Of a DNA stretch of 51,699 bases, positions 1,588-36,920 are shown in pieces; within the stretch, counting starts at the first letter, position 1, and each line of letters starts with the position of its first letter. The stretch covers positions 1 through 51,699 of the forward strand of contig JACPIJ010000060.1 of assembly GCA_016188145.1 (NCBI GenBank), given 5' to 3'. The position numbers and the translations under genes were made by a program. Under the pieces are notes generated by a model. It saw nothing but the letters and a program-made list of their open reading frames with translations. It did not search any database and had not been told where the DNA came from. This DNA comes from Candidatus Woesearchaeota archaeon. GTDB lineage: Archaea; Nanobdellota; Nanobdellia; Woesearchaeales; UBA10216.

Positions 1588-1593
1588 ATTCGG

Positions 1594-1624
1594 TTTTTGA
1601 TCAACCTTTTTCTTAAAAAGGTTG
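1594..1624 (-). repeat. hairpin + ATCAAAAAC element, short copy A
   Basis: Minus-strand reading: CAACCTTTTT-AAG-AAAAAGGTTG-ATCAAAAAC-CGAAT-ATG. A 10-bp stem lies between a TTTAAATA box (1640-1647) and the GT4 start codon. Confidence 0.8.
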
Positions 1625-1679
1625 TGCTGCAGATGCAGATATTTAAACGTGTTTGTTGTTTTTGGCTCATCTGTTATGC

Positions 1680-5325: not shown

Positions 5326-5760
5326 TCACTTCTTCCGCTGCGTTTTCTGATTGACCTCTCCACGTCGTCTTTGGACGACGGGACCAGTCGTGCTTGCACG
5401 ACTTGGTTTCTTAAAGAGGTCATGCTGTGGTTCCTGCGCCCTTTCGAGTGCGAGCTGCCTAACGAGCTCTTCAAGGCCTTTCTGCGTTTTCCTGACAACG
5501 CGGTAGGAATAGAACGTAGCCGCTATGAGGAACATGAAGCCCAGTATTATGAAAAGGTCCAGCTTTCTTTCAAGCCTTAATGCAGCTGTTATTGGGTTGA
5601 TGACGTCGGGGAAAAGCGAGATTGCGCTGAATGACAGTGCAAACAGGCTCCAGAATGCCCACTCGTTTATTGTGAATTCCTTTTTCTTCCACTGGAGGAA
5701 GCTCATGTAGAGCATGAATGCGCCGAATACTATTCCGAAGACCTGTACGCCAAGCACCAT
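5326..5760 (-). CDS. DUF2304-family small membrane protein (usual GT2 partner) with an element-encoded C-terminal tail
   Basis: MVLGVQVFGIVFGAFMLYMSFLQWKKKEFTINEWAFWSLFALSF...FIILGFMFLIAATFYSYRVV fits DUF2304, and it lies directly downstream of a GT2 gene. The last ~30 codons are read straight through repeat copy E. Confidence 0.65.
   Translation of the reverse strand: MVLGVQVFGIVFGAFMLYMSFLQWKKKEFTINEWAFWSLFALSFSAISLFPDVINPITAALRLERKLDLFIILGFMFLIAATFYSYRVVRKTQKGLEELVRQLALERAQEPQHDLFKKPSRASTTGPVVQRRRGEVNQKTQRKK
5343..5422 (-). repeat. hairpin + ATCAAAAAC element, long copy E (carries a two-hairpin insert)
   Basis: Outer stem TGACCTCT/AGAGGTCA encloses CCACGTCGTC-TTTG-GACGACGGG and ACCAGTCGTGC-TT-GCACGACTTGGT. 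It is flanked by the (plus-strand) TTTTCTGAT motif. Confidence 0.85.
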
Positions 5761-9697: not shown

Positions 9698-9774
9698 GAA
9701 TCTGCCCCGTCAAACCCGGTGATGCAAGCTACTGCGGCAACTCAGGGCGTATTTAAATGTGTTGCGGATTTTTG

Positions 9775-9854
9775 TTTTTTGATTGACCTTTCCACATCGT
9801 CTTTTGACGATGGGACCCGTCGTGCTTGCACGACGTGGTTTAGAAAAAAGGTCA
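9775..9854 (-). repeat. hairpin + ATCAAAAAC element, long copy D (carries a two-hairpin insert)
   Basis: Outer stem TGACCTTT/AAAGGTCA encloses CCACATCGTC-TTTT-GACGATGGG and ACCCGTCGTGC-TT-GCACGACGTGGT. The TGA stop of the reductase gene is part of the outer stem. Confidence 0.85.
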
Positions 9855-11087
9855 GAACCACGCTTTTTTAGCGAAGAGCAGCAGCTTTGGCTCTCTCATC
9901 AAAAGCTTGAGCGCAAATCTTGACGGCTGGTCGCGGTCGTAGCTTTCAAGAATAGCTTTGTTCTTTTCCCTGGCGAAAGTTTCAACAAGCCTGTTGTAAT
10001 CCTCGTTGCTGAACCTTTCCATTGCCTTTCTCATGAGGAGTGAGAGGTACAGGTCCATCCCCATTCTCTTCTTCCACAGCTTTTCATAATCGGCATTTTT
10101 CGTTATCGCCTCCGCCACCGCCTCTGCCCCGATCAGGCTTTGGTTTATCCCTCCGAGCGTTGGCGCTTTCACCATTGTTGCCGCATCCCCAACAAGCAGC
10201 ACCCTGCCGTCCTTTGTTTTTGACTTTAGCCTTGGGTCATACAGTGGTATTGGGCCGGCCTGCCTACCTGCTATCTTCTTCTCGTAATCCTTGCCGGCCA
10301 CAGCTGTCAGGAACCGCTTGAAGTATTGGCTGGCTTCTTTTTTCGCGGCAATACCCACTCTTGCAATTTTCTCATTCTCGGGCACAACCCAGGCTATGCC
10401 TTCCTCGCTTGGGTAGAAGTCAATGATGTTATCGTTTTCAACCGGTATGGTTGCCTGCAGCCCGACGTAGAACTGCCTGTTTCCAAACAAGCCCGCAGAT
10501 TTTGCAACCGCGCTTATGGGCCCGTCAGCACCAACCAAATAATTGGCTTCGACGGTTTTTGTTTCGTTTTTTATTTTGTCTTTCACAGCAACCATTACTT
10601 TTCTCGTTTCCCAATTCGCTTTCGAGCGAATGGGCCCAATCGGGCTCTTCCCGATTTGTGTTTCTTTTTCACTGCCGCTGCCGCCATTATTGCCATCTTC
10701 AAACGTTTCAAACGTGTGGTTGGCAAAGAATTTTGCCCCTGCGTCTTTAGCCAATTCAGAAATGTGCCTGTCAAGCCCTGCCCTGTCTATAATAATGTCG
10801 TTCTTCAGCTTGACCTCAACAAATTCCTTATTTGGCGCAATTATCCTCGCCTTTGCAATCCTGTTGACAATTAATTCCTTCGGCAATTGCAGCCGTTGTG
10901 AAAGGACATCGCCGGTTATGACCCCTGTGCAGGCTACCGGTTCCCCTATCGTTCCATGCTCCTCAAACACCCGCACGTCCATCCCTGCTTTCGCAAGAAG
11001 GTAGGCTGAAAATCCGCCAGCTGGCCCTGCGCCAGCAATCGCTATTTTTTTGCTTTCCATATTTCCATCTCCGTTGCTGCCATGCAC
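9852..11087 (-). CDS. geranylgeranyl reductase family FAD-dependent oxidoreductase
   Basis: KIAIAGAGPAGGFSAYLLAKAGMDVRVFEE (GxGxxG), GEPVACTGVI and LLVGDAA motifs. A Gly/Ser-rich insertion of about 50 aa is present. Confidence 0.85.
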   Translation of the reverse strand: MHGSNGDGNMESKKIAIAGAGPAGGFSAYLLAKAGMDVRVFEEHGTIGEPVACTGVITGDVLSQRLQLPKELIVNRIAKARIIAPNKEFVEVKLKNDIIIDRAGLDRHISELAKDAGAKFFANHTFETFEDGNNGGSGSEKETQIGKSPIGPIRSKANWETRKVMVAVKDKIKNETKTVEANYLVGADGPISAVAKSAGLFGNRQFYVGLQATIPVENDNIIDFYPSEEGIAWVVPENEKIARVGIAAKKEASQYFKRFLTAVAGKDYEKKIAGRQAGPIPLYDPRLKSKTKDGRVLLVGDAATMVKAPTLGGINQSLIGAEAVAEAITKNADYEKLWKKRMGMDLYLSLLMRKAMERFSNEDYNRLVETFAREKNKAILESYDRDQPSRFALKLLMREPKLLLFAKKAWF

Positions 11088-13576: not shown

Positions 13577-14803
13577 ATGAAACGTGCTAACACAGGCGTT
13601 TTTGCGGCATTCCTTCTTGTTTTCTTGTTTTTGTTAGTCACTGTTATCCCTCTTCTGCTGCTCCTCTTCTCTTACGGCTTTTTGCAACTACCTAAGCTGA
13701 CTTACTATAACATCACAATCGCAGCCACCACAGGGCTTTTCATTATTCCCGTTTTCCTTGTTTTCCTCGCAGCAGTCATTGCTCTAGCAGCGAAAAGAAA
13801 AGGGGCAGCCGTTGCTGCTGGCTTAAAACCAAGGCGGGAACCTGAGCCTTATCCCTGGGAAAGTGTCTTCGGGGCAGCAGGGAAGGAGGATTTCAAGGCA
13901 GTAAAGGTAACTGCGAAAACAGCTTTTACCAGTCCTAAACCTAGCGTAACTGTCCTGGCTGTTGCTGCCGTTATTGTGGCAGCGACTGTTGTTTTCTTTG
14001 TAATGGTGGTGCCAACAGCAAAGGACGTGTTCACAGGAGGTGGCAAAGGCTCAAATTTGACTGTCCTGGCGAACTTAAGCGCTGGCATCTCAGATAACGT
14101 CGTGAAAAATGAAAGCGCAAGCTCGCTTTTCCAGTTTTTTAAGGCAAAATTAAGTAATTTAAGAAAAACAAACATGACTGGCCTGGCAGAAGAGGCAAGG
14201 ATAGCCGAAGCAAAAAAGCTGGCTGAACTGGAAAAGGCAAAGCAAAAGCAGGAAAAGGAAGCAAAGCAGAAGGAACAAAAGGCTTCATCTTTTTCAGCTT
14301 TGGCAGCGAAATTCAATGCTGTTAAGGCTGCAGCAGTGAAGGTGTCTGCGTTTTGGCCTTATGCCCTTGCCGGGATTAGCATGCTGGTGATGCTTGCTGG
14401 TGGTTTTTATTTTTACAGGGCAAAAAAGGTTAAGCCCGCTGCGGAATGGGTCAGAACATGCGTGGCTGACTCTGCCGGCTGGCTTGCCGTGCTTTTTTCT
14501 GACGTGAAAAGAAACGGCCTGAAGCTTCTGATAATTGCAGCTGTGGTTTTGGCTGCAGCCTTGGCTTTCGTGTTCAGAAGCTGGCTTAAGGCCAAATTGC
14601 CGGCTTTTTCCAAAGTTGCCGTGCCTGTTCTTGCGGCTATCCGCGAATCAGCCATTAGCTTTTTTTACGCGGCAAGAAACTTTCTTCTGGCTTACAGGAT
14701 TTACATCCTGATTGGCATAGCTGTGCTTCTGGTGATTTTTGGGATTCTTTTTGTGCTTGAACGCAAAGGGAAAGAAGCAGGAACACCCAAATCAAAAACC
14801 TAG
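13577..14803 (+). CDS. hypothetical membrane protein with a Lys/Ala-rich coiled-coil segment
   Basis: Several TM helices flank AEEARIAEAKKLAELEKAKQKQEKEAKQKEQK. A GGGGAGG Shine-Dalgarno lies 7 nt upstream of the ATG at 13577 (the ORF track starts at 13556). Confidence 0.55.
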   Translation: MKRANTGVFAAFLLVFLFLLVTVIPLLLLLFSYGFLQLPKLTYYNITIAATTGLFIIPVFLVFLAAVIALAAKRKGAAVAAGLKPRREPEPYPWESVFGAAGKEDFKAVKVTAKTAFTSPKPSVTVLAVAAVIVAATVVFFVMVVPTAKDVFTGGGKGSNLTVLANLSAGISDNVVKNESASSLFQFFKAKLSNLRKTNMTGLAEEARIAEAKKLAELEKAKQKQEKEAKQKEQKASSFSALAAKFNAVKAAAVKVSAFWPYALAGISMLVMLAGGFYFYRAKKVKPAAEWVRTCVADSAGWLAVLFSDVKRNGLKLLIIAAVVLAAALAFVFRSWLKAKLPAFSKVAVPVLAAIRESAISFFYAARNFLLAYRIYILIGIAVLLVIFGILFVLERKGKEAGTPKSKT

Positions 14804-15954
14804 CCTGCAATGGCCTTGGCTGCAGTAATCACGGCATAGATTATCCCGAACAGGAACATAAATGCAAGAGCAATTGCCACAAGCCTTGGCATGTTGATTG
14901 CGTATTCCGGTTTTACCTCAGCCTTTTTCTTCTTCGCGGCAATATGCATTGCTACCAGCAGGATTCCTTCTATGCCGCCAGCCACTGCACCTGCAACTCC
15001 CAGCACGGCAATGAAGTTCTTCAAGCCGAGAAGGAAAGCCAGCAGGGGGATGAAGCATGTCAGTGCCCACGCGGTCTTCCTTTTAAGCCTGTAGTCATAA
15101 ACGTACATCTCCTTTAGCGCAAGCCCAAGTGCTATGAACGAAGTGCTCATTGCCAGCACTGCAAAAAGGTTTGCGAACAGAATCATTCTTTCCCCAAGCA
15201 TTTTGCCAATGGTTACAGTTGCCAGCTGGCCTGTTGCTGCGCCGCTTATTCCAACAACAGCCACAGCAAAGAGCGAATAAAGCACTATGGGCACAAGCCC
15301 TCCCAATATTATTGCCCTTTTGAGAAGCTTTCTGGCTTTTCCGCTTCCGAGCTCTTCCCTCATTTCTGGTATGGCAACCGCTCCCAGAAAGGCAAATAGC
15401 ACGACACCATACGGCACAAACAGGTTTTGTATGCTTGTTCCAGTGAAGTTCGCCGCAGAGAACCTGCCTGAGTTTGCAGCGACTACTATTATAATAGATA
15501 TAACGGCAATGGTTAAAAAAGACAGCAGCAGCTCGGATTCCTCAACAGCCTTCAGCCCGAAGTATACTATTGCCGAGGCAGCTGCAAAAAAGATAATGCT
15601 CCAGAAAAATGGCGTGAGCTGGGGGTTTATGGCGTTAAGGGCATTCCCCGCTCCTATAATGTAGGCGAGCAGGGCTCCGTAGATGCCAAAAACCATTGCA
15701 AGCGCCATGAGCCTCTTGCCATTCTTGCCAAGATATTTTTCCGCATAGCCTGTCAGCTGGTGGTTTCCTTTGGTTCTAAGCACCACCTCCCCAAGCAGCA
15801 GGTTGACCAGCATCACGGCAGCGCCTATTATAATAATGTGCAGCAGCCCAACAGCCAAGCCTGACTTGGCAACAACATATGGTATGCCCAGCACACCGGC
15901 TCCGATTGTGGTGCCGACAAGCGTTGCGACTGCCTCAAGGAACCTCTTTTTCAT
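14800..15954 (-). CDS. amino acid permease (Trp/Tyr permease / AAAP-like family)
   Basis: 384 aa with about 11 TM helices. The N-terminus EAVATLVGTTIGAGVLGIPYVVAKSG is typical of this transporter family. Confidence 0.75.
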   Translation of the reverse strand: MKKRFLEAVATLVGTTIGAGVLGIPYVVAKSGLAVGLLHIIIIGAAVMLVNLLLGEVVLRTKGNHQLTGYAEKYLGKNGKRLMALAMVFGIYGALLAYIIGAGNALNAINPQLTPFFWSIIFFAAASAIVYFGLKAVEESELLLSFLTIAVISIIIVVAANSGRFSAANFTGTSIQNLFVPYGVVLFAFLGAVAIPEMREELGSGKARKLLKRAIILGGLVPIVLYSLFAVAVVGISGAATGQLATVTIGKMLGERMILFANLFAVLAMSTSFIALGLALKEMYVYDYRLKRKTAWALTCFIPLLAFLLGLKNFIAVLGVAGAVAGGIEGILLVAMHIAAKKKKAEVKPEYAINMPRLVAIALAFMFLFGIIYAVITAAKAIAG

Positions 15955-15977: not shown

Positions 15978-15985
15978 TTTAAATA
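15978..15985. promoter_or_regulatory. shared, near-palindromic TATA box (TTTAAATA) for the divergent permease gene and tRNA-Trp
   Basis: It lies 24 nt from the permease ATG (15954) and 26 nt from the tRNA 5' end (16012). TTTAAATA-type boxes recur about 25 nt upstream of many starts in the window. Confidence 0.6.
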
Positions 15986-16011: not shown

Positions 16012-16231
16012 GGGGATGTAGTATAAACACCCGCGGCTCTTGAGTAGTGCTGCGGGATGGTACAGCCCGGCATTATGGGGGCCTCCAGCGATTGGAGAAC
16101 TGAGCCAACGGCAAACCGAAGGCGATGACCGACCCATAGTAGAAAGCCTCGGATCTGGGTTCAAATGACCTTTTTTTTGCGAAAAATGTCAATCAAAAAA
16201 CGCAAGAAGGCTGAAGGTCCCAGCATCCCCA
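16012..16231 (+). tRNA. tRNA-Trp(CCA) interrupted by three introns (D-arm, canonical 37/38, T-loop)
   Basis: Exons 16012-16024, 16064-16088, 16145-16166 and 16219-16231 join to a 73-nt cloverleaf: GGGGAUG-UA-GUAU-AGCCCGGCA-UUAU-G-GGGGC-CUCCAGA-GCCUC-GGAU-CUGGG-UUCAAAU-CCCAG-CAUCCCC-A. The acceptor stem is a perfect 7 bp and the T-stem a perfect 5 bp. The D-loop has A14, G18G19 and A21. A TATA box lies upstream and a T7 run downstream. The first intron boundary is ambiguous between 9/10 and 13/14 because of the GTAT/GTAC duplication. Confidence 0.8.
16166..16200 (+). repeat. hairpin + ATCAAAAAC element, copy F, inside the tRNA-Trp T-loop intron
   Basis: TGACCTTTTTTTTGCGAAAAATGTCAATCAAAAAACG aligns with the minus strand of copy C (TGACCTTTTTAGAAAAAAGGTCAATCAAAAACG). 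The similarity continues into CGCAAGAAGG versus CGAATAAGG. Confidence 0.7.
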
Positions 16232-16282
16232 CCTTTTTTTCCAAAAAGCTTATATAGTGCTTTTGCCTTTACAAAGTTCAGC

Positions 16283-17429: not shown

Positions 17430-20400
17430 TTGTCTTTTAACGCGAAGTCGCTTAAGCCGCTTTTTTCACAGAAAAAGGGAACCATTTACAGCCTTGTTCT
17501 GCTGATTGCCGTAGCGGTAATGGTTGTAGGCATATTGTCGGTTAATGCTTTAAACGCAAGAAATGTTACAATAACTCCCAAGTGGGTGGGTTCTAGTTTC
17601 AATCAGTCCTTTAACATTACTGTTAGCAATGTTGCTGGCAGTGCTGTAATCAATGTAGTCAGGATTACTAAACCAAACGATTTTGTCGACATATACTGTA
17701 TTAACCCCGTGACTACGGGGTGGACTTGCGCAACCAACGGCACGAAACAAGGGTTTGTGTATGTGGAATTCACAGGCGGCACCATAGCTGCTGGCGCTTC
17801 TGACAGCTTTAACATTACCTCAACCGCTGCCAGTGCTGCCGGTGATTACACGTTTCAGTTGAGGACAGAGGATGACGCTGCCGCTATTAACTCAACCAAT
17901 CTCAACAACAACGTTTCTGTCGACACACGTCCTCCACTGCTTGTTTTGATGAACGTTTCTGACGGCACCAGAATCCTTAGCAGCGGGGAGCACCTTAATG
18001 GCTCGCTTTTCCTGAGCAACTCCACTGGCAGGGTTACCATACTGTTTAACGCAACCGACAACGAGTCGTCAGTGCACTCTGTAACGCTTTACTACAACGC
18101 CACAAATAGCACGTCAATTTCTGAAGATGTTATCTTAAAGCCTAACCACCAAACAGCAGGCACTTATGATTTGGCATATGCAATGTCCAACTTATCATTC
18201 GGGCCTGGCTCTTTGTGGAACGCAACGCTTGATGGCGGCAACATCCTCAACGGCACAAGGATATTCTTCACAGTTGTTGCCAACGACACGGTAAGAAACG
18301 GCAACGTGAGCAACTCCACCTACTGGCCGAATTCTGGCACGGCTTACAATTTTACTATAGACTCGGCTGCCCCAAGGTTTGAGGACGTTCAGGTTTTAAA
18401 CGCCAGTCAGCTTACCACCAACACGGCAGGCAATGCCATTAACACCACTAAGACGTTTGGCAGCCTTGGCGGGCTTGAGTACATAATAAACAGCAGCCTG
18501 CTGCTTAACGTCAGCGCCCTCGTCAGCGATGGCGGAGGCTCAGGCGTTGTGCGTGTCCAGATTATGAACAGGACAGGCAACTTTGTGGACATGAACCCGA
18601 TTACCGGCACGAATGGCTCAAGTGGCCAGACAACGTGGAACCTCTCGCTCTACAACATAACCGACCTGGGGCAGCGCGTTGGCGGCTTCAATGGCGATGG
18701 GTTATACAACCTCAGCTTCAGGACAACCGATAATGTCAGCAACGTCGTCAATAATAACTTCACCGTTGAGGTTGACGACGCCCCGCCAACAGGCTCTGTT
18801 TCCACAAACATAACAATTAATGGCAAGCTTTCAGAAGGCAATGTAACACTGGACATCTCTACAAACGCATCCTTCAACATCAGCCTTAAGACAACCAATA
18901 ACATAAACAACATTACAAGGAACGTGAGCGTGTTTGGCAACAGAGGGCTGGTGTACAACTTCACTTTCGGCAGCGGAACGACTTCAGGCACTTCAGTCTG
19001 GAACCTGACCCTGTTAAACGACTCATTGGTTAACCTGAGCAACTTCTGCGACGCAAGCACGGGCTTTACGGCTGCTGACGGCTCGCAGTGTAACCTCCAA
19101 TTCAACTTCTCAGACGTCCTTGGAAGGATGAACAGCTCAATAAACCTGACAATAGCTGTTGACGGGGTTGCGCCAAACGTTTCGATAATCAGCCCTGTTT
19201 CCCTTACAACTAACTATACCGGTACAGTCCTGATTAACGCCTCAGTGAACGATTCTGTCGGGCCATTAAGGAACGTCTCGTTCAGGTGGAGGATGAACTC
19301 GTCAACAATTACTGACGGTGACGAAGGCCTTAATGCGAGCAACTGGATGCCCCTCAGTTTGACATCAGGCACCAACAGCCAGTTCAACGCTCGCGGCTAC
19401 TGGTCAGCCACGCTCACAATCAGCAGCTTGACTGACACGAATTACAGCATAGAAATCAACGCAACCGACAGCGGCGCAAGGCAGAACACTACGACAAATG
19501 TTTCGAATGTCATATTTGACTCTACAATTCCGCAGAACATCACCATAGTTGCGCCCGGCTCGAACAGCTTCCTCAGGGTTAACTTCACAGTTGGCATAAA
19601 CGCCACCGAGAGGATATCGGGGCTGCGCAACGTGAGCGTAAGGCTTGAAAACGCAACCCATACTTCTCCGTGGGTTGGGATGAATCAGGAGATTGTTGCC
19701 CTTTCATCTGTTACTACCATTGCCACAACTGCAAAATACAACGCATCCAGGTTTAACCTCACCCATGTTGGTGAGCAGGCCATGAACGCAAGCAATGGCA
19801 ACTTCACCTTGCGGCTTAACGTCACAGACACGGCAGGCAACCAGAACACCACTGTAACGATAAACTTCACAATAGACACGGTTCTGCCCACGAATATAAC
19901 GGTAATACAGCCGTTAACCGGCATAAACAGGACAGGCAACTTCACCATTAACCTCTCGGTTAATGAGTCAAACATTGATACTGTCTGGTTCAGGTGGGTT
20001 AATGACAGCAGCGGCGCTACAGCGGGCCATAGGGGGCCATGGGTGCCAATGACTCAAGGCACTGTCGGCATGTTCAACAGCACCTTTATCAACCTGACCG
20101 TTGCTCCGGTATTGCTTGATGGCAACTACAGCATAGAGTTTAACGTTACCGACAGGGCGGGCAACCAGAACGCCTCCACGCTGCTCAACAGCACTCCCTT
20201 TGCCCAGCTTGTCCTTGACAGTAATGCCCCGCTGATTATTGCTACCGGCTCCCTTGCTGGCAACACCTCAAACCTGACCGGCAACTTTTTTGTTAACCTC
20301 ACGATAAACGACACCAGCACATGGAACATGACCGTTGGCAAGCTTACTACCAGAAACATTAACGCCTCAGCGTTCAGGCTTGAGAACACAACGTTTAACA

Positions 20401-21647
20401 GCAGCTGGCTCAACATGGATTTCGCAACCAATGACATGACAAACGCAGACTCCAACAGGACCAACGCTACCTTCACGTTCAGCTCTGTGCCAAACGGGCT
20501 TTACAACATAAGGTTCATGGTTAACGACACAGCAGGAAACCAGAACAACACAGTCCAGGTCAGCAACGTTATGCTTGACAACGTTGCGCCAAGCGTTGCA
20601 ATGTCTGTAAGCAACCTAAGCCCGAGCCCGACTGGAGGAAGCGGTATTTCCGGCAGTTTGTCATTCAATGTTACCATAACAGACAACCTGCCGGTTAACA
20701 TCAGCATCGGAAACACGAACAGCACGCAGGGCAACAGGTTCGGCGTGTTCTACCGCTTTGTGAGCGCTTCACTCACAACATCGTGGCTGCCGATGAACAC
20801 TACATCGTTCTCAGAGTCAATAACAGCGCCGCACAAGGTCGTGTTTAACGCCACCAACGGCACCTCAGCGCTGGCTGACGGCGATTACCAGCTGCAGATT
20901 AACGCAACAGACTCGGCAAACAACCAGAACGCTACAGTGTATGTTGACGTTACATTGCAGAATGGCGGCAGCCGTGTGCAGGCCAAGAACCTGACCTTCT
21001 TTGAGGGCATTTGGAATGGCTTTGCCAACAGCAGCACAGACACCTACACGTTCCTGATGAACACCACTGCAAACGCGACTTGCAGATACTCGCTCGACAC
21101 GTCAGCAACCGACTATGACGCTATGACCAGCACTATGACTAACAACGTCAGCAGGGAGCACAGAATCGCCTTCGGTCCACGCAGGGATGTTGGAGCTTCA
21201 GGCCATACATTATACTATGCCTGCAAGGATGTTTCTGGCAACTTCACAGCTGCTGGAGGAGCAGCGAGCCAGTTCCCCTTCGGCATTGACACCAGGAGCC
21301 GTTGGAATGTTACAATCCCGGGAAAGACCGACAGCAAGTGGCCAAACTACTTCCAGGCAGCAGCTGGCGGCAGCGCTAATGGCTGGTCAAGCTTTGTGCT
21401 TTCAACAGGACAGTTGGCAGACACTACTTTAGTCAGTCCGGGAACATATAACGTGACTTCTGTGCTGTCCTCGCTGCTGAGCGGAACCGCAGCAGGCAAC
21501 TTCACCAGAATATATGCTTACACTGCCAGCAGTGACTCGTGGGTGAGTTTCAGGGTAGGGCAGACAGGCAATACATTTATCAACTTTACCAACCAGACAA
21601 CATACTGGCTTAACGTTACAACCGTTGAAAGGCTGGAGATAAACTAA
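17430..21647 (+). CDS. giant secreted/anchored glycoprotein, about 10 Ig-like (DxAGN-type, Big_5/SbsA-like) repeats, sequon-saturated
   Basis: 1405 aa. Repeated modules end in DTAGNQNTT / DRAGNQNAS / DTAGNQNNT / DSANNQNAT followed by V-x-D-x-x-x-P. I hand-counted about 110 N-X-S/T sequons. The N-terminus SQKKG-TIYSLVLLIAVAVMVVGILSV resembles an archaeal class III signal. TTG start, with GAGGTG 10 nt upstream. Confidence 0.8.
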   Translation: MSFNAKSLKPLFSQKKGTIYSLVLLIAVAVMVVGILSVNALNARNVTITPKWVGSSFNQSFNITVSNVAGSAVINVVRITKPNDFVDIYCINPVTTGWTCATNGTKQGFVYVEFTGGTIAAGASDSFNITSTAASAAGDYTFQLRTEDDAAAINSTNLNNNVSVDTRPPLLVLMNVSDGTRILSSGEHLNGSLFLSNSTGRVTILFNATDNESSVHSVTLYYNATNSTSISEDVILKPNHQTAGTYDLAYAMSNLSFGPGSLWNATLDGGNILNGTRIFFTVVANDTVRNGNVSNSTYWPNSGTAYNFTIDSAAPRFEDVQVLNASQLTTNTAGNAINTTKTFGSLGGLEYIINSSLLLNVSALVSDGGGSGVVRVQIMNRTGNFVDMNPITGTNGSSGQTTWNLSLYNITDLGQRVGGFNGDGLYNLSFRTTDNVSNVVNNNFTVEVDDAPPTGSVSTNITINGKLSEGNVTLDISTNASFNISLKTTNNINNITRNVSVFGNRGLVYNFTFGSGTTSGTSVWNLTLLNDSLVNLSNFCDASTGFTAADGSQCNLQFNFSDVLGRMNSSINLTIAVDGVAPNVSIISPVSLTTNYTGTVLINASVNDSVGPLRNVSFRWRMNSSTITDGDEGLNASNWMPLSLTSGTNSQFNARGYWSATLTISSLTDTNYSIEINATDSGARQNTTTNVSNVIFDSTIPQNITIVAPGSNSFLRVNFTVGINATERISGLRNVSVRLENATHTSPWVGMNQEIVALSSVTTIATTAKYNASRFNLTHVGEQAMNASNGNFTLRLNVTDTAGNQNTTVTINFTIDTVLPTNITVIQPLTGINRTGNFTINLSVNESNIDTVWFRWVNDSSGATAGHRGPWVPMTQGTVGMFNSTFINLTVAPVLLDGNYSIEFNVTDRAGNQNASTLLNSTPFAQLVLDSNAPLIIATGSLAGNTSNLTGNFFVNLTINDTSTWNMTVGKLTTRNINASAFRLENTTFNSSWLNMDFATNDMTNADSNRTNATFTFSSVPNGLYNIRFMVNDTAGNQNNTVQVSNVMLDNVAPSVAMSVSNLSPSPTGGSGISGSLSFNVTITDNLPVNISIGNTNSTQGNRFGVFYRFVSASLTTSWLPMNTTSFSESITAPHKVVFNATNGTSALADGDYQLQINATDSANNQNATVYVDVTLQNGGSRVQAKNLTFFEGIWNGFANSSTDTYTFLMNTTANATCRYSLDTSATDYDAMTSTMTNNVSREHRIAFGPRRDVGASGHTLYYACKDVSGNFTAAGGAASQFPFGIDTRSRWNVTIPGKTDSKWPNYFQAAAGGSANGWSSFVLSTGQLADTTLVSPGTYNVTSVLSSLLSGTAAGNFTRIYAYTASSDSWVSFRVGQTGNTFINFTNQTTYWLNVTTVERLEIN

Positions 21648-21693
21648 AAATATAAATAATAGCTTCTATCTTTGGCATAGTAGGGGAATCTGC

Positions 21694-23364
21694 ATGGTTA
21701 AAGCTAAAAATTCCGCATTAATAATTCTTATTTTAAGCATTTTAAGCTTGTCATTGTTTCTGTCATTAAGCGCGTATGCTGAGCAGTATGAAAAGCTTAA
21801 CACATTCACAGGCAACGTCACAATAGGAGGGAGCTACGCGTATAACGGCGCAGTTATTGACGCCTTCATAGGCAGCTCGTCCTCTCCTGCAAAGTCGTAC
21901 ACGATTGGCTCCTCAAACCTGGGGGAGAACTACTCAGTTGACTTTGAATGCAACGCCGGCAGCACAGTTTTCCTGAAAGTGTGGGGCATCAACGCCACCC
22001 ATCAAACCTGCACCAATTACTTGGCTAACTACACAAACCTTTCTGTTTCCCTGACGGCCAACGACGGCTCGTGCAGCTACGCCAACGGCTGCTCAAGCGG
22101 CATCTGCTGCTCTGGCGATACTGCAGTTAACAGCTCTACCTCAAGCGGCGTATGTCAGGCAGCGGCGTGCGGCGCCGGCATAACCATACCGGCATTTTCC
22201 CTCAGCGCTTCGAGCATAACAACGTCTGGAACAGTGAATTTCACCATAAACCTAAGCAGCGTGCTGCGCTACAACATCACGTCAGCGAACTTCACCCTGG
22301 TTACCGGGTCAACTGTGGTTAGCAGGAACTTTACCATACCTTCCAGCGGGAAGGATTTCAACTTAAGCTACAAAATCTTTGCCTCGTCAGAAACAGCGTC
22401 TGCTGGCACGTACAACGTGACCGCTGTGCAGGTTAATGACAACGGAAGCATAGTAAACCGCACTGCCATAACAAACATGAACTTCACCGTTACGGCTGCG
22501 GCAACCACTCCTGCCGCTGATACGGGCGGAAGCAGCGGCGGTGGAAGCGGTGGCGGAGGGGGAACCCCGGCTGTAACACCAGCTCCAGCACCCAGTAAAG
22601 AAACTGTAGAGGCGGTTAAAGAGGCCTTGCCTGCGACTTTCCAGGTGGCTGCGGAAGCCGGCAACGTTGAGTACAAGACAGTTGCAGCTCCTGAGGTCAA
22701 GGCGGTTCCCGCAAAGGCAGAAGCAGCTACCTCAGATATCAAGTACGCTGTGGATTATTTAGTCAAGACAGAGGAGGCACAGCAGGCGTTGAGCAGCATA
22801 CAGGACGCCGTTTCAGCTGGCTCTGCAACCACGGTCCAGGCTTCTGGCGGCTCTGTCAAGAAAACAATTGAGGTTGTCAAGGCTACCAACAAGGTCACTA
22901 AGGAAGAGGTAGTTGTTTCTGTCGTCAAGCTCTCGGTCACCGCCCCAGGTAACCAGGACCTGAAGAACGTTGAGGTTGTCGAGGTTATTCCGAAGGCAGC
23001 TGCCAGCAATGTCAACCAGGTCACTTTTAAGGGCGAAAAGCCCATAGTGCTTGAGGCAGACCCTGTTGTCAAGTGGTTCTTTGCCCAGGTCAGCAAGGGC
23101 CAGAAGAAGGATCTCAGTTACGCCATTAACAAGGACATAAGGAGCATCGGCACGAGCACAGTCGCTGTCCAGGGACGGGCAGAAGCAGCCCCTCCGGCCG
23201 TTGAGGCGCCCCCTGCTCCTCCTGTTGGGGAGAAAGAAGAGGCAGCGCCTGCTGAGGTCAAGAAGCCCACTCCTTTTAGCATAATGATTTTGGTGGTTGT
23301 TCTGGCTGTTGTCGTGGTTGGCGGCTGGCTGTTCCTGAAGGGCAGGAAGAAGGTTATGAAGTAA
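21694..23364 (+). CDS. secreted Cys-rich glycoprotein with a Gly linker, IPK-type domain, TM anchor and basic tail
   Basis: Signal peptide ...LSLSAYAEQ, a Cys-rich N-domain, many NxS/T sequons, GGSSGGGSGGGGGTP, and C-terminal FSIMILVVVLAVVVVGGWLFLKGRKK. Confidence 0.75.
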   Translation: MVKAKNSALIILILSILSLSLFLSLSAYAEQYEKLNTFTGNVTIGGSYAYNGAVIDAFIGSSSSPAKSYTIGSSNLGENYSVDFECNAGSTVFLKVWGINATHQTCTNYLANYTNLSVSLTANDGSCSYANGCSSGICCSGDTAVNSSTSSGVCQAAACGAGITIPAFSLSASSITTSGTVNFTINLSSVLRYNITSANFTLVTGSTVVSRNFTIPSSGKDFNLSYKIFASSETASAGTYNVTAVQVNDNGSIVNRTAITNMNFTVTAAATTPAADTGGSSGGGSGGGGGTPAVTPAPAPSKETVEAVKEALPATFQVAAEAGNVEYKTVAAPEVKAVPAKAEAATSDIKYAVDYLVKTEEAQQALSSIQDAVSAGSATTVQASGGSVKKTIEVVKATNKVTKEEVVVSVVKLSVTAPGNQDLKNVEVVEVIPKAAASNVNQVTFKGEKPIVLEADPVVKWFFAQVSKGQKKDLSYAINKDIRSIGTSTVAVQGRAEAAPPAVEAPPAPPVGEKEEAAPAEVKKPTPFSIMILVVVLAVVVVGGWLFLKGRKKVMK

Positions 23365-23468
23365 CCTTTCCTTTGTGCCGTTTTCGGCACTTAAGTGCCA
23401 CAATTGGAACATTATAAACAACTTTTCCTGTATAACTTTATAAATCCCCGCTTGCACTTAATTTTAAG

Positions 23469-26400
23469 GTGCTGGCAAAATTGGACAGTAGAGCGGTGTC
23501 GAGGCTTGTTTTTCTGGTTGCTGTAGCTGCTGCAGCTGCTGTGCTGTTTGGAAAGCTTTTCGTAGCTGCCTCAGCATCTTCTGAGGAGCCTGTAAAGGTA
23601 ATTGTTTACGTCAAGGACGGCTCTTGGGAGAAGAAGCTCGTCAGGGGGATTTACCCCGCAGCTGCCGCTGTCAGTTCGCAGTCTGTGCTGGAATCCTTGC
23701 CTGCTGGCGAGGTCGAGGCTGGCCACCGCTTTAGCTCCTTTGACGGCTTTGTAGCTACTGTGAGCAGGGCTGCTTATGAGCAGCTTAAGGCAAATCCGAA
23801 CCTTGAGGTGTATGAAGATGGGTTTTCCAGCATCATGCTTGACGGCTCTGCCCCCCTTGTAAACTCAACCATTACGCATGGCCTGGTTTACAACAGCAGC
23901 AACATAACGGGGAATACCATAAGCGTTTGCGTTATTGACACTGGCGTCAACTACAGCCATCCTGCCCTGGGAGGATGCACCACTTCGCAGTTTACAGGCG
24001 GCACCTGTGCAAAGGTTCTTTCAGGCTATGACTTTTTCAACTCTGACAATGACCCGATGGACAACCACGGCCACGGCAGCCACGTTGCAGGGATAGTGGC
24101 GAGCACTGACAGCACTTACCGCGGCATAGCCCCTAACGCTTCCATTATAGCCTTAAATGCCTGCAGCAATGCAGGCTCCTGCCCTAACAGTAACATTACA
24201 GCTGCCATCGACTGGTGCGTCAACAACGCCTCTAAGTTCAACATTTCCGTCATAAGCATAAGCTTGGGGGGAGGGCTTTACAATTCTTACTGCGACAACG
24301 ATGATTCAGCAGGCGTTTTCAAGCTGCCAATAGACACCGCTGTTGTGAATAACATCTCTGTTGTTGCAGCTTCTGGCAACCAGGGCGTTTCTGTTACTCA
24401 GGGCAGCACAACTCAGATACGCGCTCCTGCCTGCATCCAGAACGCTACAGCTGTTTCTTCAACAACCAAGCAGGATGCGGTTGCAGCTACTGCTGACCGA
24501 AACAACATTACAGACCTGCTTGCCCCTGGCGACAGCATTACATCTGTTAATTACAACACTGGCGGCTTTACGTCAAAGAGCGGCACTTCCATGGCTGCCC
24601 CGCATGTTTCTGGCGCGATTGCCCTTCTGGCGCAGTTCAGGAAGCTCACGGCAGGTGTTAACATAACGGTAAACGAAAGCTTCCTCGCCCTCAACACAAC
24701 AGGCGTCAACGTTACAGACACAGACGGAAACGGTATCCAGTATGCGAGGATTAACGTCTACAAGGCTTCGCTGTGGCTTGACTCCGACCCTCCCAACATC
24801 ACTTACGTTGCCCCGACACTTGCTAACAATTCAAATTCCTCGTCGACAAACGTCTTCGTCAACATCACCAGCAGCGAAATCCTCCATACTGCATTGCTTG
24901 AGTGGAACAACAACACCAACATCACCAACTACAGCATGGTCCAGAATGGCTCGGCTCTTGCCTGGGCTAGGAACCATACCTCGAGCAGCTCCGGCGTTAT
25001 AACTTACAGAGTGTGGGGCAACGACTCTGCTGGCAACTGGGGTGTTGCCGAAAATAGGACTGTGCAGGTCAACAACACGCCTCCGAGGATTGATTTGTTC
25101 CTGCCTGCCAACATCAACCACAACATCACAGAGCCAGCCAATCAGACATTCAACATAACCTACACCGACACCGAAAACGATGCCGTGATTGTGGACTGGT
25201 ACGTTAACGGCACCCTCCAGGCATCAGCGAGGAACACCAACTTCACTTTCCTTGGCAACTTCAGCCAGGCATCGCAGCAGCGCAACGGCACTTACAACAT
25301 CACCGCTGTTGTCTCGGATGGTAGCCTTTCCAACCAGCTAAACTGGACTTTGACAGTGAATAACACAAACAGGGCTCCGCAATGGGCCAATGCCTCCAAC
25401 CAGACATCAGCCGAGGACGCCCCGCTGAATTTCACAGTCATTGCCACAGACCTTGACAACGACACGATAACCTACTTCCTGAACAACACGATAAACTTTA
25501 CTATAAACGCGACAACAGGCAACATAACCTTCAACCTCTCTGGCGCCGGCAACTTTTCGGGAACGTTTTACCTTGCCATCAACGCTTCTGACGGCCTCGC
25601 AAATGCGTCTGAAGTGATTTTCGTGAACATAACGGCAGTTAATGACACCCCAACGCTATTTACAATCAGCAACTTTACCTTGAACGAAACCGACTTTGCC
25701 AACATAACCGCAGTTGCCGATGACGCTGAGAACGACCTTCTCAACTTTACAATAAACGACACTGCAAGATTTAATTTCACGACGAGAAACCAGTCAGCTG
25801 CCAACTTCAGCTGGAAGACAAACATTACTGATGCGGGAACTTACCAGTTCAGGGTCAACGCCACTGACTTCAATACATCAAGCATTGGCTTCTTCAACGT
25901 TACGGTGGTTGACAGGCCTGATTTTGACGGGGATGCCATTCCTGACATTTATGATGATGATATTGACAATGACGGCGTTCAAAACGGGCAGGACTCGATC
26001 CTTGGTAACTTCAGCAGCCTGAATTCCTCAACTCTGCTGTCTTCAGCCCTTAATGTTACGATTAATGGCACAGCAAACGCATCAAGGCTTCTCAGCGATA
26101 CGCTTTTTGTGAACGTATCAAACAGCACCCGTTCATTGCTCGCGTTTTACTGGAATTTCAGCCTCAGCAACCTTTCGCTTAATTTTACGGTTGACGTGCA
26201 GGCCCCGGCAGCGTCTGTTGGCTTTATACTGATTAAAGGGCTTGTGCTGCAGCAGAACCAGACGAAAAACATCACTATAAACGTTGTGAGCGGCAGCAAC
26301 AGCGTCTGCGTCAAGGATGCTGATGTTTCCTCGATTAATGACGTGAGCAGCGGCTGCAGCGGCGCTAATGAGACTCTCATCTCATGCCCTGGAGTTGCAG

Positions 26401-27305
26401 GCAAGTTCGACTGCTCAATAGTCAACAGCCAATTTTACGAAATCACGAATGTCAGCTTTACAGCAGCAAAGGAGCAGCCTGCATCACCAAGTCCGCAGGC
26501 GCAGAATGACGGTGGTGGTGGTGGCGGTGGAGGCGGTGGTGGGGGTGGTGGAGGGGGTACGGCAGCAAGCACAGGCGGCTCTTTGGCAAGGGTGTCACAG
26601 GTGTTTACAGCAGTCAAGGAAGGTGAAACTGCGATTATGAGGATTAACAGGTCAAGCATAGCTTTCACGAAGGTAAGATTTACGGCAGCGTCATCCCTGT
26701 CAAACATCAACATTAATGTTGAGCTTCTTAATGAGTCGAGCGTTTCAACTAGGCTTTCCACCCCTGAAACATCATTCTCTGTTTACCAGTACCTGAGCAT
26801 TACATCAAAGCTTACCTTCCTTGACATAACCGGTGCTGCAGTTGAGTTCAGGGTTCCAAGGCAGTGGCTGTCGGACAGGGGCTTCAATGCAAGGCAGGTT
26901 TCGCTGTTCAGGCACTCAGCCGGCTCATGGGACAGGATGAGGGCTGTGCTTTTCAGCGAGGACAGCAGCTATTACTACTATTCAGCCGATTTGCCGGCGT
27001 TTTCGCTTTTCGCAATCGCTGCTGAGAAGCTTGGAGAAGAGGAAAAGCCTGTTGCCGGAGAACCTCTCCTGGTACCGCCAAATGCGACAGAAGCAAAACC
27101 GGCTGATCAAACCGCAGTTTCGCTGCAAAAAGAGTCTCTTTTCAAATCGGTATTTTCTGAAAGGAAGTTCAAGCTTGTGGCAGCAGCTGCCGCTGTTGCC
27201 CTCGTTCTGCTGGCAGCCATTTTCCTTAAAATGTTCAGAAAAATGAGGGAGCAGGAAAGAGTAAGCGACTTTGTGTCCACAGTTTCTAGAATAAGGCGTA
27301 AATGA
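23469..27305 (+). CDS. membrane-anchored subtilisin-like (S8) serine protease fused to a long glycosylated stalk
   Basis: Catalytic motifs VCVIDTGVNYSHPAL (Asp), HGHGSHVAGIVAS (His), AASGNQG (Asn) and SGTSMAAPHVSGAIALL (Ser). An I9-like propeptide comes first. After the protease come sequon-rich Ig/cadherin-like repeats, a DFDGDAIPDIYDDDIDNDGVQNGQD calcium-type motif, a 16-Gly tract, a PGF-pre-PGF-like domain (...VYQYLSI...FRVPRQWL...AFSLFAIAA) and a TM anchor. A leaderless-type GTG start lies about 25 nt downstream of CTTTATAAAT. Confidence 0.85.
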   Translation: MLAKLDSRAVSRLVFLVAVAAAAAVLFGKLFVAASASSEEPVKVIVYVKDGSWEKKLVRGIYPAAAAVSSQSVLESLPAGEVEAGHRFSSFDGFVATVSRAAYEQLKANPNLEVYEDGFSSIMLDGSAPLVNSTITHGLVYNSSNITGNTISVCVIDTGVNYSHPALGGCTTSQFTGGTCAKVLSGYDFFNSDNDPMDNHGHGSHVAGIVASTDSTYRGIAPNASIIALNACSNAGSCPNSNITAAIDWCVNNASKFNISVISISLGGGLYNSYCDNDDSAGVFKLPIDTAVVNNISVVAASGNQGVSVTQGSTTQIRAPACIQNATAVSSTTKQDAVAATADRNNITDLLAPGDSITSVNYNTGGFTSKSGTSMAAPHVSGAIALLAQFRKLTAGVNITVNESFLALNTTGVNVTDTDGNGIQYARINVYKASLWLDSDPPNITYVAPTLANNSNSSSTNVFVNITSSEILHTALLEWNNNTNITNYSMVQNGSALAWARNHTSSSSGVITYRVWGNDSAGNWGVAENRTVQVNNTPPRIDLFLPANINHNITEPANQTFNITYTDTENDAVIVDWYVNGTLQASARNTNFTFLGNFSQASQQRNGTYNITAVVSDGSLSNQLNWTLTVNNTNRAPQWANASNQTSAEDAPLNFTVIATDLDNDTITYFLNNTINFTINATTGNITFNLSGAGNFSGTFYLAINASDGLANASEVIFVNITAVNDTPTLFTISNFTLNETDFANITAVADDAENDLLNFTINDTARFNFTTRNQSAANFSWKTNITDAGTYQFRVNATDFNTSSIGFFNVTVVDRPDFDGDAIPDIYDDDIDNDGVQNGQDSILGNFSSLNSSTLLSSALNVTINGTANASRLLSDTLFVNVSNSTRSLLAFYWNFSLSNLSLNFTVDVQAPAASVGFILIKGLVLQQNQTKNITINVVSGSNSVCVKDADVSSINDVSSGCSGANETLISCPGVAGKFDCSIVNSQFYEITNVSFTAAKEQPASPSPQAQNDGGGGGGGGGGGGGGGGTAASTGGSLARVSQVFTAVKEGETAIMRINRSSIAFTKVRFTAASSLSNININVELLNESSVSTRLSTPETSFSVYQYLSITSKLTFLDITGAAVEFRVPRQWLSDRGFNARQVSLFRHSAGSWDRMRAVLFSEDSSYYYYSADLPAFSLFAIAAEKLGEEEKPVAGEPLLVPPNATEAKPADQTAVSLQKESLFKSVFSERKFKLVAAAAAVALVLLAAIFLKMFRKMREQERVSDFVSTVSRIRRK
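26511..26558 (+). repeat. GGN microsatellite encoding 16 consecutive glycines
   Basis: ggt ggt ggt ggt ggc ggt gga ggc ggt ggt ggg ggt ggt gga ggg ggt, read directly from the sequence. Confidence 0.95.
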
Positions 27306-27579
27306 ACGGCGATAATGGGGATGCTTGCCCGAATATTATGAGCATGCCCACAAGCACAAGCGTTACTATTATTGGCAGGAGCCACCACTTCTTCCTGACC
27401 TTCATGAAGCTCCAGGCCTCCCTCACAAGGTAGAAGTGTCTCTGCAGGAAACCTTCCCTTCCCTCATTTTTGCCAAGTACCTCTGCAATTCTTGCTTCTT
27501 CACCTGTTTGAGCTTGAGCTTCCCGATTTTCATTCCGGGCTTGTTTGCCTTTGTCCATTTCAGTTTTTCCGTTCTTCAT
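27286..27579 (-). CDS. DUF5989-family small membrane protein with a charged N-terminal extension
   Basis: The C-terminus VREAWSFMKVRKKWWLLPIIVTLVLVGMLIIFGQASPLSPFIYALF matches the DUF5989 signature (RKKWWL...PFIY-LF). It sits 12 nt downstream of the SGNH gene. Confidence 0.7.
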   Translation of the reverse strand: MKNGKTEMDKGKQARNENREAQAQTGEEARIAEVLGKNEGREGFLQRHFYLVREAWSFMKVRKKWWLLPIIVTLVLVGMLIIFGQASPLSPFIYALF

Positions 27580-27591
27580 ATTACTGCGTTT

Positions 27592-28797: not shown

Positions 28798-28846
28798 GCT
28801 CCATAGGCAATTGCTTAATAATTGTTTAGTCTTTGCTTAGTTTTGC

Positions 28847-30574: not shown

Positions 30575-30592
30575 TTGTTACCCCGGAATCTT

Positions 30593-30874
30593 TTAGAACG
30601 CCCTGTAAGACTCCTTGCTGCTGTAATCCTCTTTCTTCCTCTCAATCCAGTAGCTTTGCTTCTTTTCATCTGGCTTAAGATCTAAGAACCTTTTCCTGGC
30701 CACCTTGGCAATGGCAGCAGTTGCGGCAAAAGCGGTGAAGTAAACGGCAGTTAAAAGAACATAATTCACCAGAATGGCAACCTTTTTCCCAACGAACTCA
30801 AATGGTTTGAGTGCCAGCTTCAGCCTTTTCAGCTTGCCCAGCGGCTTTAGAAAGTCAAAAATCCCCATTTTCAA
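30593..30874 (-). CDS. SxtJ-like small membrane protein (C-terminal-half homologue)
   Basis: VNYVLLTAVYFTAFAATAAIAKVARKRFLDLKPDEKKQSYWIERK resembles the conserved SxtJ C-terminal pattern (...L-x-LK......SYW/F-x-R). It lies directly upstream of the carbamoyltransferase, as in bacterial clusters. Confidence 0.5.
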   Translation of the reverse strand: MKMGIFDFLKPLGKLKRLKLALKPFEFVGKKVAILVNYVLLTAVYFTAFAATAAIAKVARKRFLDLKPDEKKQSYWIERKKEDYSSKESYRAF

Positions 30875-36895: not shown

Positions 36896-36904
36896 TCCTT
36901 AAAT

Positions 36905-36920
36905 TGTGCACATACAATAT
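36905..36920 (+). repeat. direct repeat TGTGCACATACAATAT (second copy, downstream of fic)
   Basis: Exact 16-nt match to 35938-35953. Confidence 0.9.

Follow-up and report, generated by a model that had tools for sequence, protein, structure and literature searches.

A tRNA-Trp(CCA) gene from a Woesearchaeota (DPANN) MAG is built of four exons and three inserts, and it went undetected by standard tRNA finders. The third of these inserts, in the T-loop, is probably a non-canonical intron at position 59/60 that is spliced through a bulge-helix-bulge (BHB) structure and whose interior is a gene-junction module captured into an already existing, rapidly turning over intron slot. Two features of this locus are new: the interior of the intron comes from a dispersed module unconnected with tRNA genes, and among close relatives a single slot is filled by three or more unrelated sequences. 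The stretch of DNA analyzed here, 51.7 kb in length, is referred to below as the window. The features discussed are collected in Table 1.

Table 1. Features of the tRNA-Trp gene and copies of the hairpin-tail module in the window
Feature	Positions	Strand	Basis or remarks
TATA box TTTAAAT of tRNA-Trp	15978-15984	+	~28 nt 5' of G1; read from sequence
tRNA-Trp(CCA) gene	16012-16231	+	Four exons and three inserts
Exon 1	16012-16026	+	
D-loop intron, position 15/16, 39 nt	16027-16065	+	Limits inferred from intron-less orthologs
Exon 2	16066-16088	+	
Canonical intron, position 37/38, 56 nt	16089-16144	+	Placed by ARAGORN
Exon 3	16145-16165	+	
T-loop intron, position 59/60, 52 nt	16166-16217	+	BHB-like motif, PWM and CM membership, copy in L014
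Hairpin + tail module inside T-loop intron	16166-16201	+	PWM, CM, alignment
3' splice-site region, predicted	16212-16218	+	BHB scan
Exon 4	16218-16231	+	
T7 run directly 3' of tRNA-Trp, presumed terminator	16234-16240	+	Read from sequence
Module copy 1	1588-1627	-	CM 54.2 bits; ends 6 nt before ATG of GT4 glycosyltransferase gene
Module copy 2	38797-38836	-	CM 55.4 bits; directly 5' of ATG of metallophosphoesterase gene (Pfam)
Module copy 3	41629-41668	-	CM 56.9 bits; copy C of the preliminary description
Module copy 4	5338-5425	-	48-nt two-hairpin module nested in loop
Module copy 5	9770-9857	-	Nested two-hairpin module; between FAD-binding gene and aglB

A tRNA-Trp gene interrupted by three inserts

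No tRNA was reported in the raw 51.7-kb sequence by ARAGORN, run with and without its intron options, or by Rfam searches in gathering and E-value modes. When the D-loop insert and the T-loop insert (16166-16217) were removed by hand, ARAGORN called a tRNA-Trp(cca) with a 56-nt canonical intron. The limits of exons and introns were set by comparison with intron-less orthologs. Removal of the inserts restores a canonical cloverleaf with the acceptor stem GGGGATG/CATCCCC, the discriminator A73 at 16231, and a T-arm, CTGGG-TTCAAAT-CCCAG, equal to that of the intron-less orthologs. The exons are identical or nearly identical to those of orthologs that adjoin the same permease gene. A TTTAAAT motif is also found 5' of the orthologous genes, and runs of five to eight T's occupy the equivalent place at their 3' ends.

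DPANN genomes are small and usually contain one gene per anticodon, and the tRNA-Trp gene of the window is probably the only one of its genome. Standard tRNA finders overlook an essential tRNA in DPANN MAGs, which bears on estimates of completeness and on claims of "missing" tRNAs.

The preliminary description of this DNA, made from the sequence, had correctly read the 52 nt that separate TTCAAAT (16160-16166) from CCCAG (16219-16223). The limits that it gave to the insert, 16167-16218, are equivalent to 16166-16217 since positions 16166 and 16218 are both T, but the string that it quoted began one base early, with the T at 16166 that is the last base of the T-loop.

The D-loop intron forms a central helix, GUAU/GUAC, followed by a long distal hairpin. 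It is also found in two related loci, L101 and L106, with 38 of its 39 nucleotides identical; the D-loops of intron-less orthologs read AACTAGGCA, AAGCCGGTA, or AACCCGGCTA. The intron at 37/38 contains CUGA-GCC...GGC-GAUGA, a K-turn-like C'/D' pair, and this motif is kept in all orthologs. Its segment UUGGAGAA is complementary to the anticodon loop, and the UUGGAGA found in the window and in all orthologs sets C34 opposite the fifth nucleotide upstream of CUGA. This arrangement suggests to us that the 37/38 intron may guide the methylation of C34.

The T-loop insert belongs to a family of hairpin modules

The insert starts with a hairpin, TGACCTTTTT...AAAAATGTCA (16166-16191), whose stem has a single C.U mismatch and whose T-run has grown to eight, and continues with the tail ATCAAAAAAC (16192-16201). 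Five intergenic copies of the hairpin + ATCAAAAAAC module are present in the window, all on the minus strand. Three of them are simple hairpins, and two consist of the same hairpin with a nested insertion. The family is characterized by a stem of ~10 bp (...ACCTTTTT/AAAAAGGT...), a short loop, and the 3' tail ATCA(A/G)AAAAC. Four to eight T's are found in the 5' arm of every copy.

The preliminary description took the T-loop insert for a copy of the intergenic hairpin element, and models built without introns place it in that family. A two-block PWM made from the five intergenic copies only gave the insert 39.3 bits, compared with 38.7 to 43.7 bits for the members and 19.3 bits for the best other site in the window. 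The maxima in 60 simulated windows had a mean of 20.9 bits (standard deviation, 2.6) and did not exceed 30.0. A covariance model (CM) built from nine non-intron copies scored the insert at 41.4 bits, with an E value of ~4e-6, and the corresponding intron of a related metagenome contig, L014, at 45.8 bits. End-to-end alignment of the window intron to the intergenic copies produced scores of 38 to 47, as opposed to 13 ± 2.5 for the null. The alignment also extended end to end, including the 3' TGAAGGT of the intron, with the copy at the end of a DUF2304 gene in L105, where the score was 45 against a null of 13.3 ± 2.5. The resemblance, for which the preliminary description allowed that it might prove nonsignificant, is thus far above the null by PWM, CM, and alignment.

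The hairpin itself shows covariation. Double compensatory changes were found in two outer pairs (U:A/A:U/C:G and G:C/A:U), and 97% of cells were paired in the module hairpin versus 49 to 70% in slid controls. Structured 81-nt copies of the module had only chance-level matches in Rfam. None of the first 13 related loci contained the exact tail pattern; with the CM, diverged variants were then found, among them those of L099 and of the distant L013. A scan of viral contigs for AAAGGTCAATCAAAAA returned 81 single matches, none with a hairpin, and all of these were considered chance matches.

A BHB-like fold at the 59/60 junctions

Folding of the pre-tRNA and a search for a relaxed BHB had been proposed in the preliminary description, and in silico a BHB-like motif is accessible at the 59/60 junctions. 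It comprises the T-stem (CUGGG/CCCAG, 5 bp), the bulge GGU, a helix UUCA:UGAA, the bulge AAU, and an irregular distal helix. The central helix, which adjoins the T-stem, is Watson-Crick in four of four pairs, and both bulges are 3 nt long. In this helix, the UUCA of the T-loop (16160-16163) pairs with UGAA at 16212-16215, and the adjacent GGU (16216-16218) is the 3' bulge. The distal helix consists of a G:C pair, one bulged A, CCUUUUU:AAGAAGG, and GCG:CGC. This side is irregular owing to the 1-nt bulge, and the hairpin of the module itself competes with it.

The pairing between the ends of the intron, ACCTT/AAGGT, that had been pointed out earlier does exist and forms part of the minimum free energy (MFE) fold of the window T-arm. 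This pairing (ACCUU/AAGGU) and the BHB fold are mutually exclusive. For the window intron, the BHB-constrained fold has an energy of -21.6 kcal/mol, 1.8 kcal/mol above the MFE of -23.4 kcal/mol. The corresponding difference was 1.1 kcal/mol in L014, which carries the same type of intron (type B), and 1.4 kcal/mol in L099, which carries a different one (type A). In L002, also of type A, the BHB-constrained fold had the same energy as the MFE fold.

Position 59/60 is among the documented positions of non-canonical introns (PMC4090602). Disrupted tRNA genes, together with EndA enzymes of broad specificity that have extra loops (L3-loop), have been reported in DPANN, including a Woesearchaeota genome (PMC5829648). 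The window encodes an RNA 3'-phosphate cyclase (RtcA); EndA and RtcB were not seen on its contig. The 59/60 insert is an intron-like interruption, with splicing, cleavage sites, and ligation predicted from the established archaeal pathway.

The central helix of the BHB depends on the tRNA's own T-loop UUCA and T-stem, and the module by itself, as modeled here, does not provide the cleavage motif. The claim that the element can be excised at the RNA level therefore stands in part. The insert occupies a known intron position between intact exons, and the pre-tRNA can adopt a BHB-like fold, but excision as a property of the element itself is not supported.

The run of eight T's in the T-loop intron lies at 16171-16178; the L014 intron has a run of five. 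Runs of five to six T's are efficient termination sites for archaeal RNA polymerase (PMC2253867), and the efficiency of termination is set by U-tracts together with aCPSF1 (PMC8716108). Because the T8 run has the appearance of a terminator and tRNA genes in this clade end in T5-T8, full-length pre-tRNA may be scarce. Either there is enough read-through, or the gene is attenuated, or a more unusual route is used, in which the 3' exon is transcribed separately.

Module copies at gene junctions

Outside the tRNA gene, the module recurs in a few settings: it directly follows or overlaps a stop codon, precedes a TATA box by ~16 nt, or has the center of its hairpin 26 to 28 nt upstream of an ATG. 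Three of the intergenic copies are conserved at orthologous sites. The ortholog of copy 1 in L105 (16236-16275), a locus where AglB is 65% identical to AglB of the window, has a compensatory change from C:G to T:A and the same spacing to the ATG. Copy 3 precedes the TATA box of a DUF460 gene by 17 nt. Copy 4 lies within the 3'-terminal coding sequence of a DUF2304 gene (ORF 5326-5760). Its counterpart in L105 has the simple form and falls within the last codons of DUF2304 (...PDLFRKNINQKTRK*), and a second L105 copy comes next, just 5' of the ATG of the following gene. Copy 5 begins with a TGA that serves as the stop codon for the FAD-binding gene, and 16 nt separate this copy from the TATA box of aglB downstream; at the orthologous site, L104 has a simple hairpin. 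The diverged variant in L013 directly adjoins a tRNA-Glu TATA box, and two copies in L099 are antisense to neighboring genes.

The nested two-hairpin module shows clean presence or absence between relatives. A generic T/A-run terminator of the genome was considered as an account of the module and was found to be insufficient: the 51.7 kb contain only five such palindromes, and three of these belong to the module family.

The preliminary description raised the question of cleavage at equivalent positions in the other copies. No equivalent motif emerged, as none of the five intergenic copies had a BHB in register, in a loose scan of weak power in which 264 of 400 random anchors gave some relaxed match. 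Since the copies are conserved at orthologous junctions, with one of them within a coding 3' end, they appear to behave as junction elements and not as introns, and their excision is not predicted. Conservation at orthologous junctions with fixed spacing suggests a function in cis of the hairpin-tail module rather than pure selfishness. Our best guess is that the intergenic module forms an intercistronic hairpin with the role of a terminator, insulator, or leader. The arms of the module act as inverted repeats, and no target-site duplication was seen; presence/absence variation occurs at the tRNA slot. In a CM search of the window and 27 loci (307 kb), the only place where a tRNA contained the module was the orthologous tRNA-Trp slot, in the window and in L014, and there was no other T-arm in the window.

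Turnover at position 59/60 among related loci

The tRNA-Trp gene is divergent from a Trp/Tyr-type permease gene throughout the clade. Twelve orthologous tRNA-Trp loci were gathered by means of this neighboring gene, and the identity of its product to the window permease was used as a proxy for relatedness. Type A, an intron (TGGGTAAGGACAACTCTGCCTTATCTTGGGCG, 32 nt, in L099) that is unrelated to that of the window, was found at position 59/60 in L099, L100, L101, and L002, with permease identities of 92%, 91%, 89%, and 74%, respectively. Type B is present at 2 of the 13 tRNA-Trp loci, those of the window and of L014 (permease identity of ~85% over 40 amino acids); the L014 intron, TGACCTTTTTCCGAAAAAGGTCAATCAAAAACGCAAAAAAGTCGGAATG, has a perfect hairpin and tail. 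L107 (76%) contains a third, longer sequence in the T-loop, and L102 and L103 (86% and 85%) have an insert at 53/54 instead. Position 59/60 is empty in L001, L105, L015, and L016, where permease identity was lower or not measured. Judging from these sequences, the 59/60 slot of tRNA-Trp is a hot spot of turnover.

Neither type A nor the D-loop intron, the 53/54 insert, or an extra insert in L101 had intergenic relatives in 314 kb. The type C insert of L107 gave a Smith-Waterman p of ~0.002 to 0.004 against the nested two-hairpin module, yet covariance model R2 misses L107, and the link is unproven.

Acceptor stems vary with compensation among the orthologs (ATG/CAT, ACG/CGT, ACA/TGT, and CTG/CAG). 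Such compensatory changes also separate the two type B carriers, which argues that type B genes are still selected as tRNAs. The region is mosaic: the D-loop intron of the window is shared with L101 and L106, and its acceptor stem is shared with more distant loci. The contigs of L103, L106, and L107 break within or at the edge of the T-arm insert, which is consistent with strain-level heterogeneity at this place.

Origin of the intron and alternative explanations

Under the explanation that we favor, the pre-tRNA would fold into a BHB with a 5-bp T-stem, a 4-bp U54-A57:UGAA helix, and the 3-nt bulges AAU and GGU. Both bulges would be cut by the archaeal splicing endonuclease, after which A59 and U60 would be joined again by a ligase. 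The "hairpin + AUCAAAAAAC" module of ~35 nt, being widespread and older than the intron, would have been copied into the slot or have replaced its content, and the type B allele would then have spread by recombination. New content would be tolerated since anything between the two bulges would be spliced out.

Because the closest relatives have an intron of unrelated sequence in this very position, the element most likely entered a slot that already had an intron, filling it or replacing its content, where closeness is measured by permease identity within a visibly mosaic region. A transfer from module to intron is the economical direction, because the module is broadly distributed and sits at orthologous junctions, including those of genomes without a 59/60 intron, while type B is confined to 2 of 13 loci. 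The opposite direction, with type B as the source and the intergenic copies derived from introns that, once excised, returned to DNA as copies at gene junctions, is very improbable. In its favor, the intron and the junction copies share a sequence family, and for Thermoproteales a transposition of introns has been proposed (PMC4033280, PMC4090602). However, the module occupies orthologous sites in L105, where position 59/60 is empty, and in the distant L013; type B is rare, with type A in the closest relatives; and no reverse transcriptase was seen in the window.

Another reading gives the module a more active part. The extended module (TGACC...hairpin...AUCAAAAAAC...UGAAGG) may belong to a pool of very small, structured mobile modules of DPANN genomes and make its own tRNA intron, although we regard this as unlikely. 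Such modules would insert in hairpin loops, in in-frame coding regions, and in tRNA T-loops. The 3' UGAA would pair with the universal UUCA of the T-loop, and landing after A59 would automatically yield a splice-competent BHB. Many copies have TGAA soon 3' of the tail because the next gene starts with ATG-AAx. If true, this would be a concrete mechanism for the de novo gain of non-canonical tRNA introns. A broader proposal, that the hairpin-tail element is a mobile intron-like family cut from RNA by the splicing endonuclease wherever it is located, seems quite improbable to us. One sequence family does occur in the tRNA intron and at gene junctions, UGAA follows the tail at a short distance in most extended copies, and the intron aligns end to end with the L105 copy. 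On the other hand, that UGAA is usually just the ATG-AAx start of the next gene, the central helix requires the UUCA and T-stem of a tRNA, and in the scan of weak power a BHB in register was found in zero of five intergenic copies. Moreover, the copies are kept at orthologous junctions with fixed spacing to an ATG or a TATA box, and one is translated as a protein C terminus.

Two further explanations take the T8 run as their starting point. In one, the gene is inactivated or crippled by the module in its T-loop: transcription terminates at T8 before the 3' exon, and another tRNA-Trp does the work. The T8 run within the insert, set against the T7 run that presumably serves as the gene's own terminator, points this way, as does the termination of archaeal RNA polymerase at T-tracts (PMC2253867, PMC8716108); the locus is also missed by standard tRNA finders. 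Yet all four exons are intact and identical to those of functional-looking orthologs, and a tRNA-Trp gene is conserved in synteny next to the permease gene in all relatives. The same type of insert persists in L014, with compensatory changes in the acceptor stem and with the UUC/GAA helix retained. In view of these observations and of the usual presence in DPANN of one gene per anticodon, a crippled gene is distinctly unlikely.

The other explanation has the tRNA split in place, with the module as a junction cassette that would both stop transcription and restart it. Nucleotides 1 to 59 would end at T8, and the 14-nt 3' exon would be transcribed separately from within the intron and trans-spliced as in Nanoarchaeum. 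The proposed pairing of GACCUUUU with AAGAAGGC and of UUCA with UGAA would hold the pieces together, the 5' arm and the 3' segment of the intron being complementary. The T8 run and the distance of 26 to 28 nt between the hairpin center and the start of the next gene in the junction copies would fit as well, and split tRNAs occur in DPANN (PMC4090602). Nevertheless, the intron is without the canonical TTTAAAT box, a 3' piece of 14 nt is far below any known split half in length, and several copies precede a separate bona fide TATA box, so that the module is not needed as a promoter. We consider a gene split in this manner to be extremely unlikely.

Comparison with known systems

With the 59/60 slot in four states among close relatives (none, type A, type B, and the third sequence), the locus is a snapshot of intron turnover, and the donor family of the type B intron can be named as a conserved gene-junction hairpin module. 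Reviews have asked for "snapshots" of tRNA intron insertion (PMC4033280), and the mechanism of transposition is regarded as unknown (PMC4090602). The locus makes it testable whether any sequence between the bulges is tolerated, whether T-tracts within introns attenuate tRNA output, and whether small palindromic modules seed introns.

The two-hairpin module of 48 to 60 nt resembles MITE-like and REP-like repeats and the palindromic elements of Rickettsia, reportedly described by Ogata et al. in 2000, in that all are short multicopy palindromes, some of which lie in frame in genes and some of which are nested in one another. The difference is that neither a transposase nor a terminal or target-site duplication was identified here, and that the hairpin-tail module keeps its place at orthologous junctions.

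In Haloferax and other Euryarchaeota, the canonical intron of tRNA-Trp contains a box C/D guide. The 37/38 intron of the window is similar in its CUGA...GAUGA pair and its complementarity to the anticodon loop, whereas its terminal C and D boxes are not recognizable.

The split tRNAs of Nanoarchaeum equitans, another member of DPANN, likewise form a BHB from complementary flanks and rely on the splicing endonuclease for joining (PMC4090602), which for the window is a prediction. Unlike in these split tRNAs, the pieces in the window follow one another on a single strand with 52 nt between them, and there is no evident promoter for a separate piece.

The connection that the preliminary description drew between a dispersed repeat and a tRNA intron is upheld by the homology; the Thermoproteales frame in which it was placed was wrong, as the source is a Woesearchaeota (DPANN) genome. 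There are similarities to the transposed introns of Thermoproteales, namely, related short sequences at more than one genomic place, a recent gain, and presence that varies between close relatives. In Thermoproteales, however, similar introns occur in different tRNA genes or positions, whereas the relatives of the window intron are non-tRNA elements, intergenic or at coding ends. A near-identical intron in a second tRNA, as is characteristic of Thermoproteales, was not found in the 307 to 314 kb searched.

There is a parallel in position and structure with the non-canonical BHB introns of Crenarchaeota, Nanoarchaeota, and DPANN, with which the window gene shares an intron at 59/60, the presence of three inserts, and a relaxed exon-intron BHB (PMC4090602, PMC5829648). 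Non-canonical positions in multi-intron tRNAs include 53/54, 56/57, and 59/60 (PMC4090602). In contrast to the known BHB introns, for the window intron cleavage is predicted, and its interior comes from a dispersed gene-junction module and carries a terminator-like run of eight T's.

T-loop inserts in related loci

T-loop inserts were also found in tRNA genes of the related loci compared with the window (see the table). In L013, the tRNA-Glu(CUC) gene is preceded by 77-nt tandem repeats, interrupted by an N-masked stretch. Each repeat combines three parts: the initial 12 nt of the tRNA, the hairpin-tail module (the hairpin and tail dispersed at gene junctions), and the tRNA promoter. The probable tRNA-Leu(CAG) of L105, which has a long, GC-rich flanking helix, occupies the interval separating the FAD-binding gene from aglB, a place taken in the window by hairpin copy 5. 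The T-loop insert of tRNA-Trp in L107 comprises three hairpins and is at least 69 nt long, as the contig ends inside it. Since three independent contigs (L103 at its start, L106 and L107 at their ends) terminate inside or exactly at the T-arm insert of tRNA-Trp, strain-level heterogeneity is suggested at this site, with assemblies broken there.

Features in the window and related loci
Feature	Locus	Position	Strand	Remarks
tRNA-Trp(CCA)	window	16012-16231	+	
Permease gene, Trp/Tyr family	window	14800-15954	-	
Very large ORFs (several)	window	17430-34826		1268-1405 aa
Fic/DOC-family gene	window	35939-36895		in low-GC island
Low-GC island	window	36001-38000		35% GC versus about 48%
RtcA (RNA 3'-terminal phosphate cyclase) gene	window	46056-47273	+	
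Two-hairpin module	window	5356-5412, 9788-9844, 10607-10666	-	
Two-hairpin module	L014	130-187	-	
tRNA-Glu(CUC) gene	L013	8890-9260	-	own T-loop insert
LAGLIDADG_3 homing-endonuclease-like ORF	L102	89-751		immediately beside tRNA-Trp 3' end
tRNA-Leu(CAG), probable	L105	about 9860-9985		long variable arm; T-loop insert ACAGCTGAAGAAGCTGTGAA
tRNA-Trp with T-loop insert of a third type	L107	1-69 (rc)		upstream of permease

Canonical intron of tRNA-Trp

A box C/D guide is known in tRNA-Trp introns of Euryarchaeota, and the canonical 37/38 intron (16089-16144 in the window) looks similar to it. Two elements are kept in the window and in all orthologs: CUGA-stem-GAUGA, a K-turn-like C'/D' pair, and UUGGAGA, whose pairing with the anticodon loop sets the fifth nucleotide upstream of CUGA opposite C34. 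No terminal C and D boxes were evident in the intron of the window or of the orthologs. At the 3' end of the intron, L101 alone among the loci compared carries an additional 43 nt of hairpin-rich sequence (ATGTCGCTGGAGAGGCGACATTCTTCAGCTCTCAGCTGAAGAA).

Genomic surroundings

The permease and tRNA-Trp genes are adjacent and divergent in the window. Among the related loci in which both genes were open to inspection, most share this arrangement, L108 being an exception. Elsewhere in the window, the RtcA gene bears on the chemistry of RNA ends during splicing and ligation. The low-GC island, which also contains an unannotated ORF of 206 aa, may be foreign DNA. The very large ORFs contain internal repeats and Gly/Ser-rich tracts of the GGTGG type, and their products are probably surface proteins.

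Two-hairpin module

A second small module of 48 to 60 nt is formed by a pair of adjacent, GC-rich hairpins. It is nested in the loops of hairpin copies 4 and 5 of the window; the L104 ortholog is a simple hairpin without it. In-frame insertions of the module occur in two genes, at the tail of DUF2304 and in the FAD-binding gene, which thereby gained ~27 aa that its L105 ortholog lacks. The permease ATG of L014 lies 6 nt downstream of a copy. The similarity of the L107 T-loop insert to the module was weak (SW p ~0.003), and R2, the covariance model used for the module, did not detect this insert. In its nesting and in-frame insertion, the two-hairpin module resembles the Rickettsia palindromic elements.
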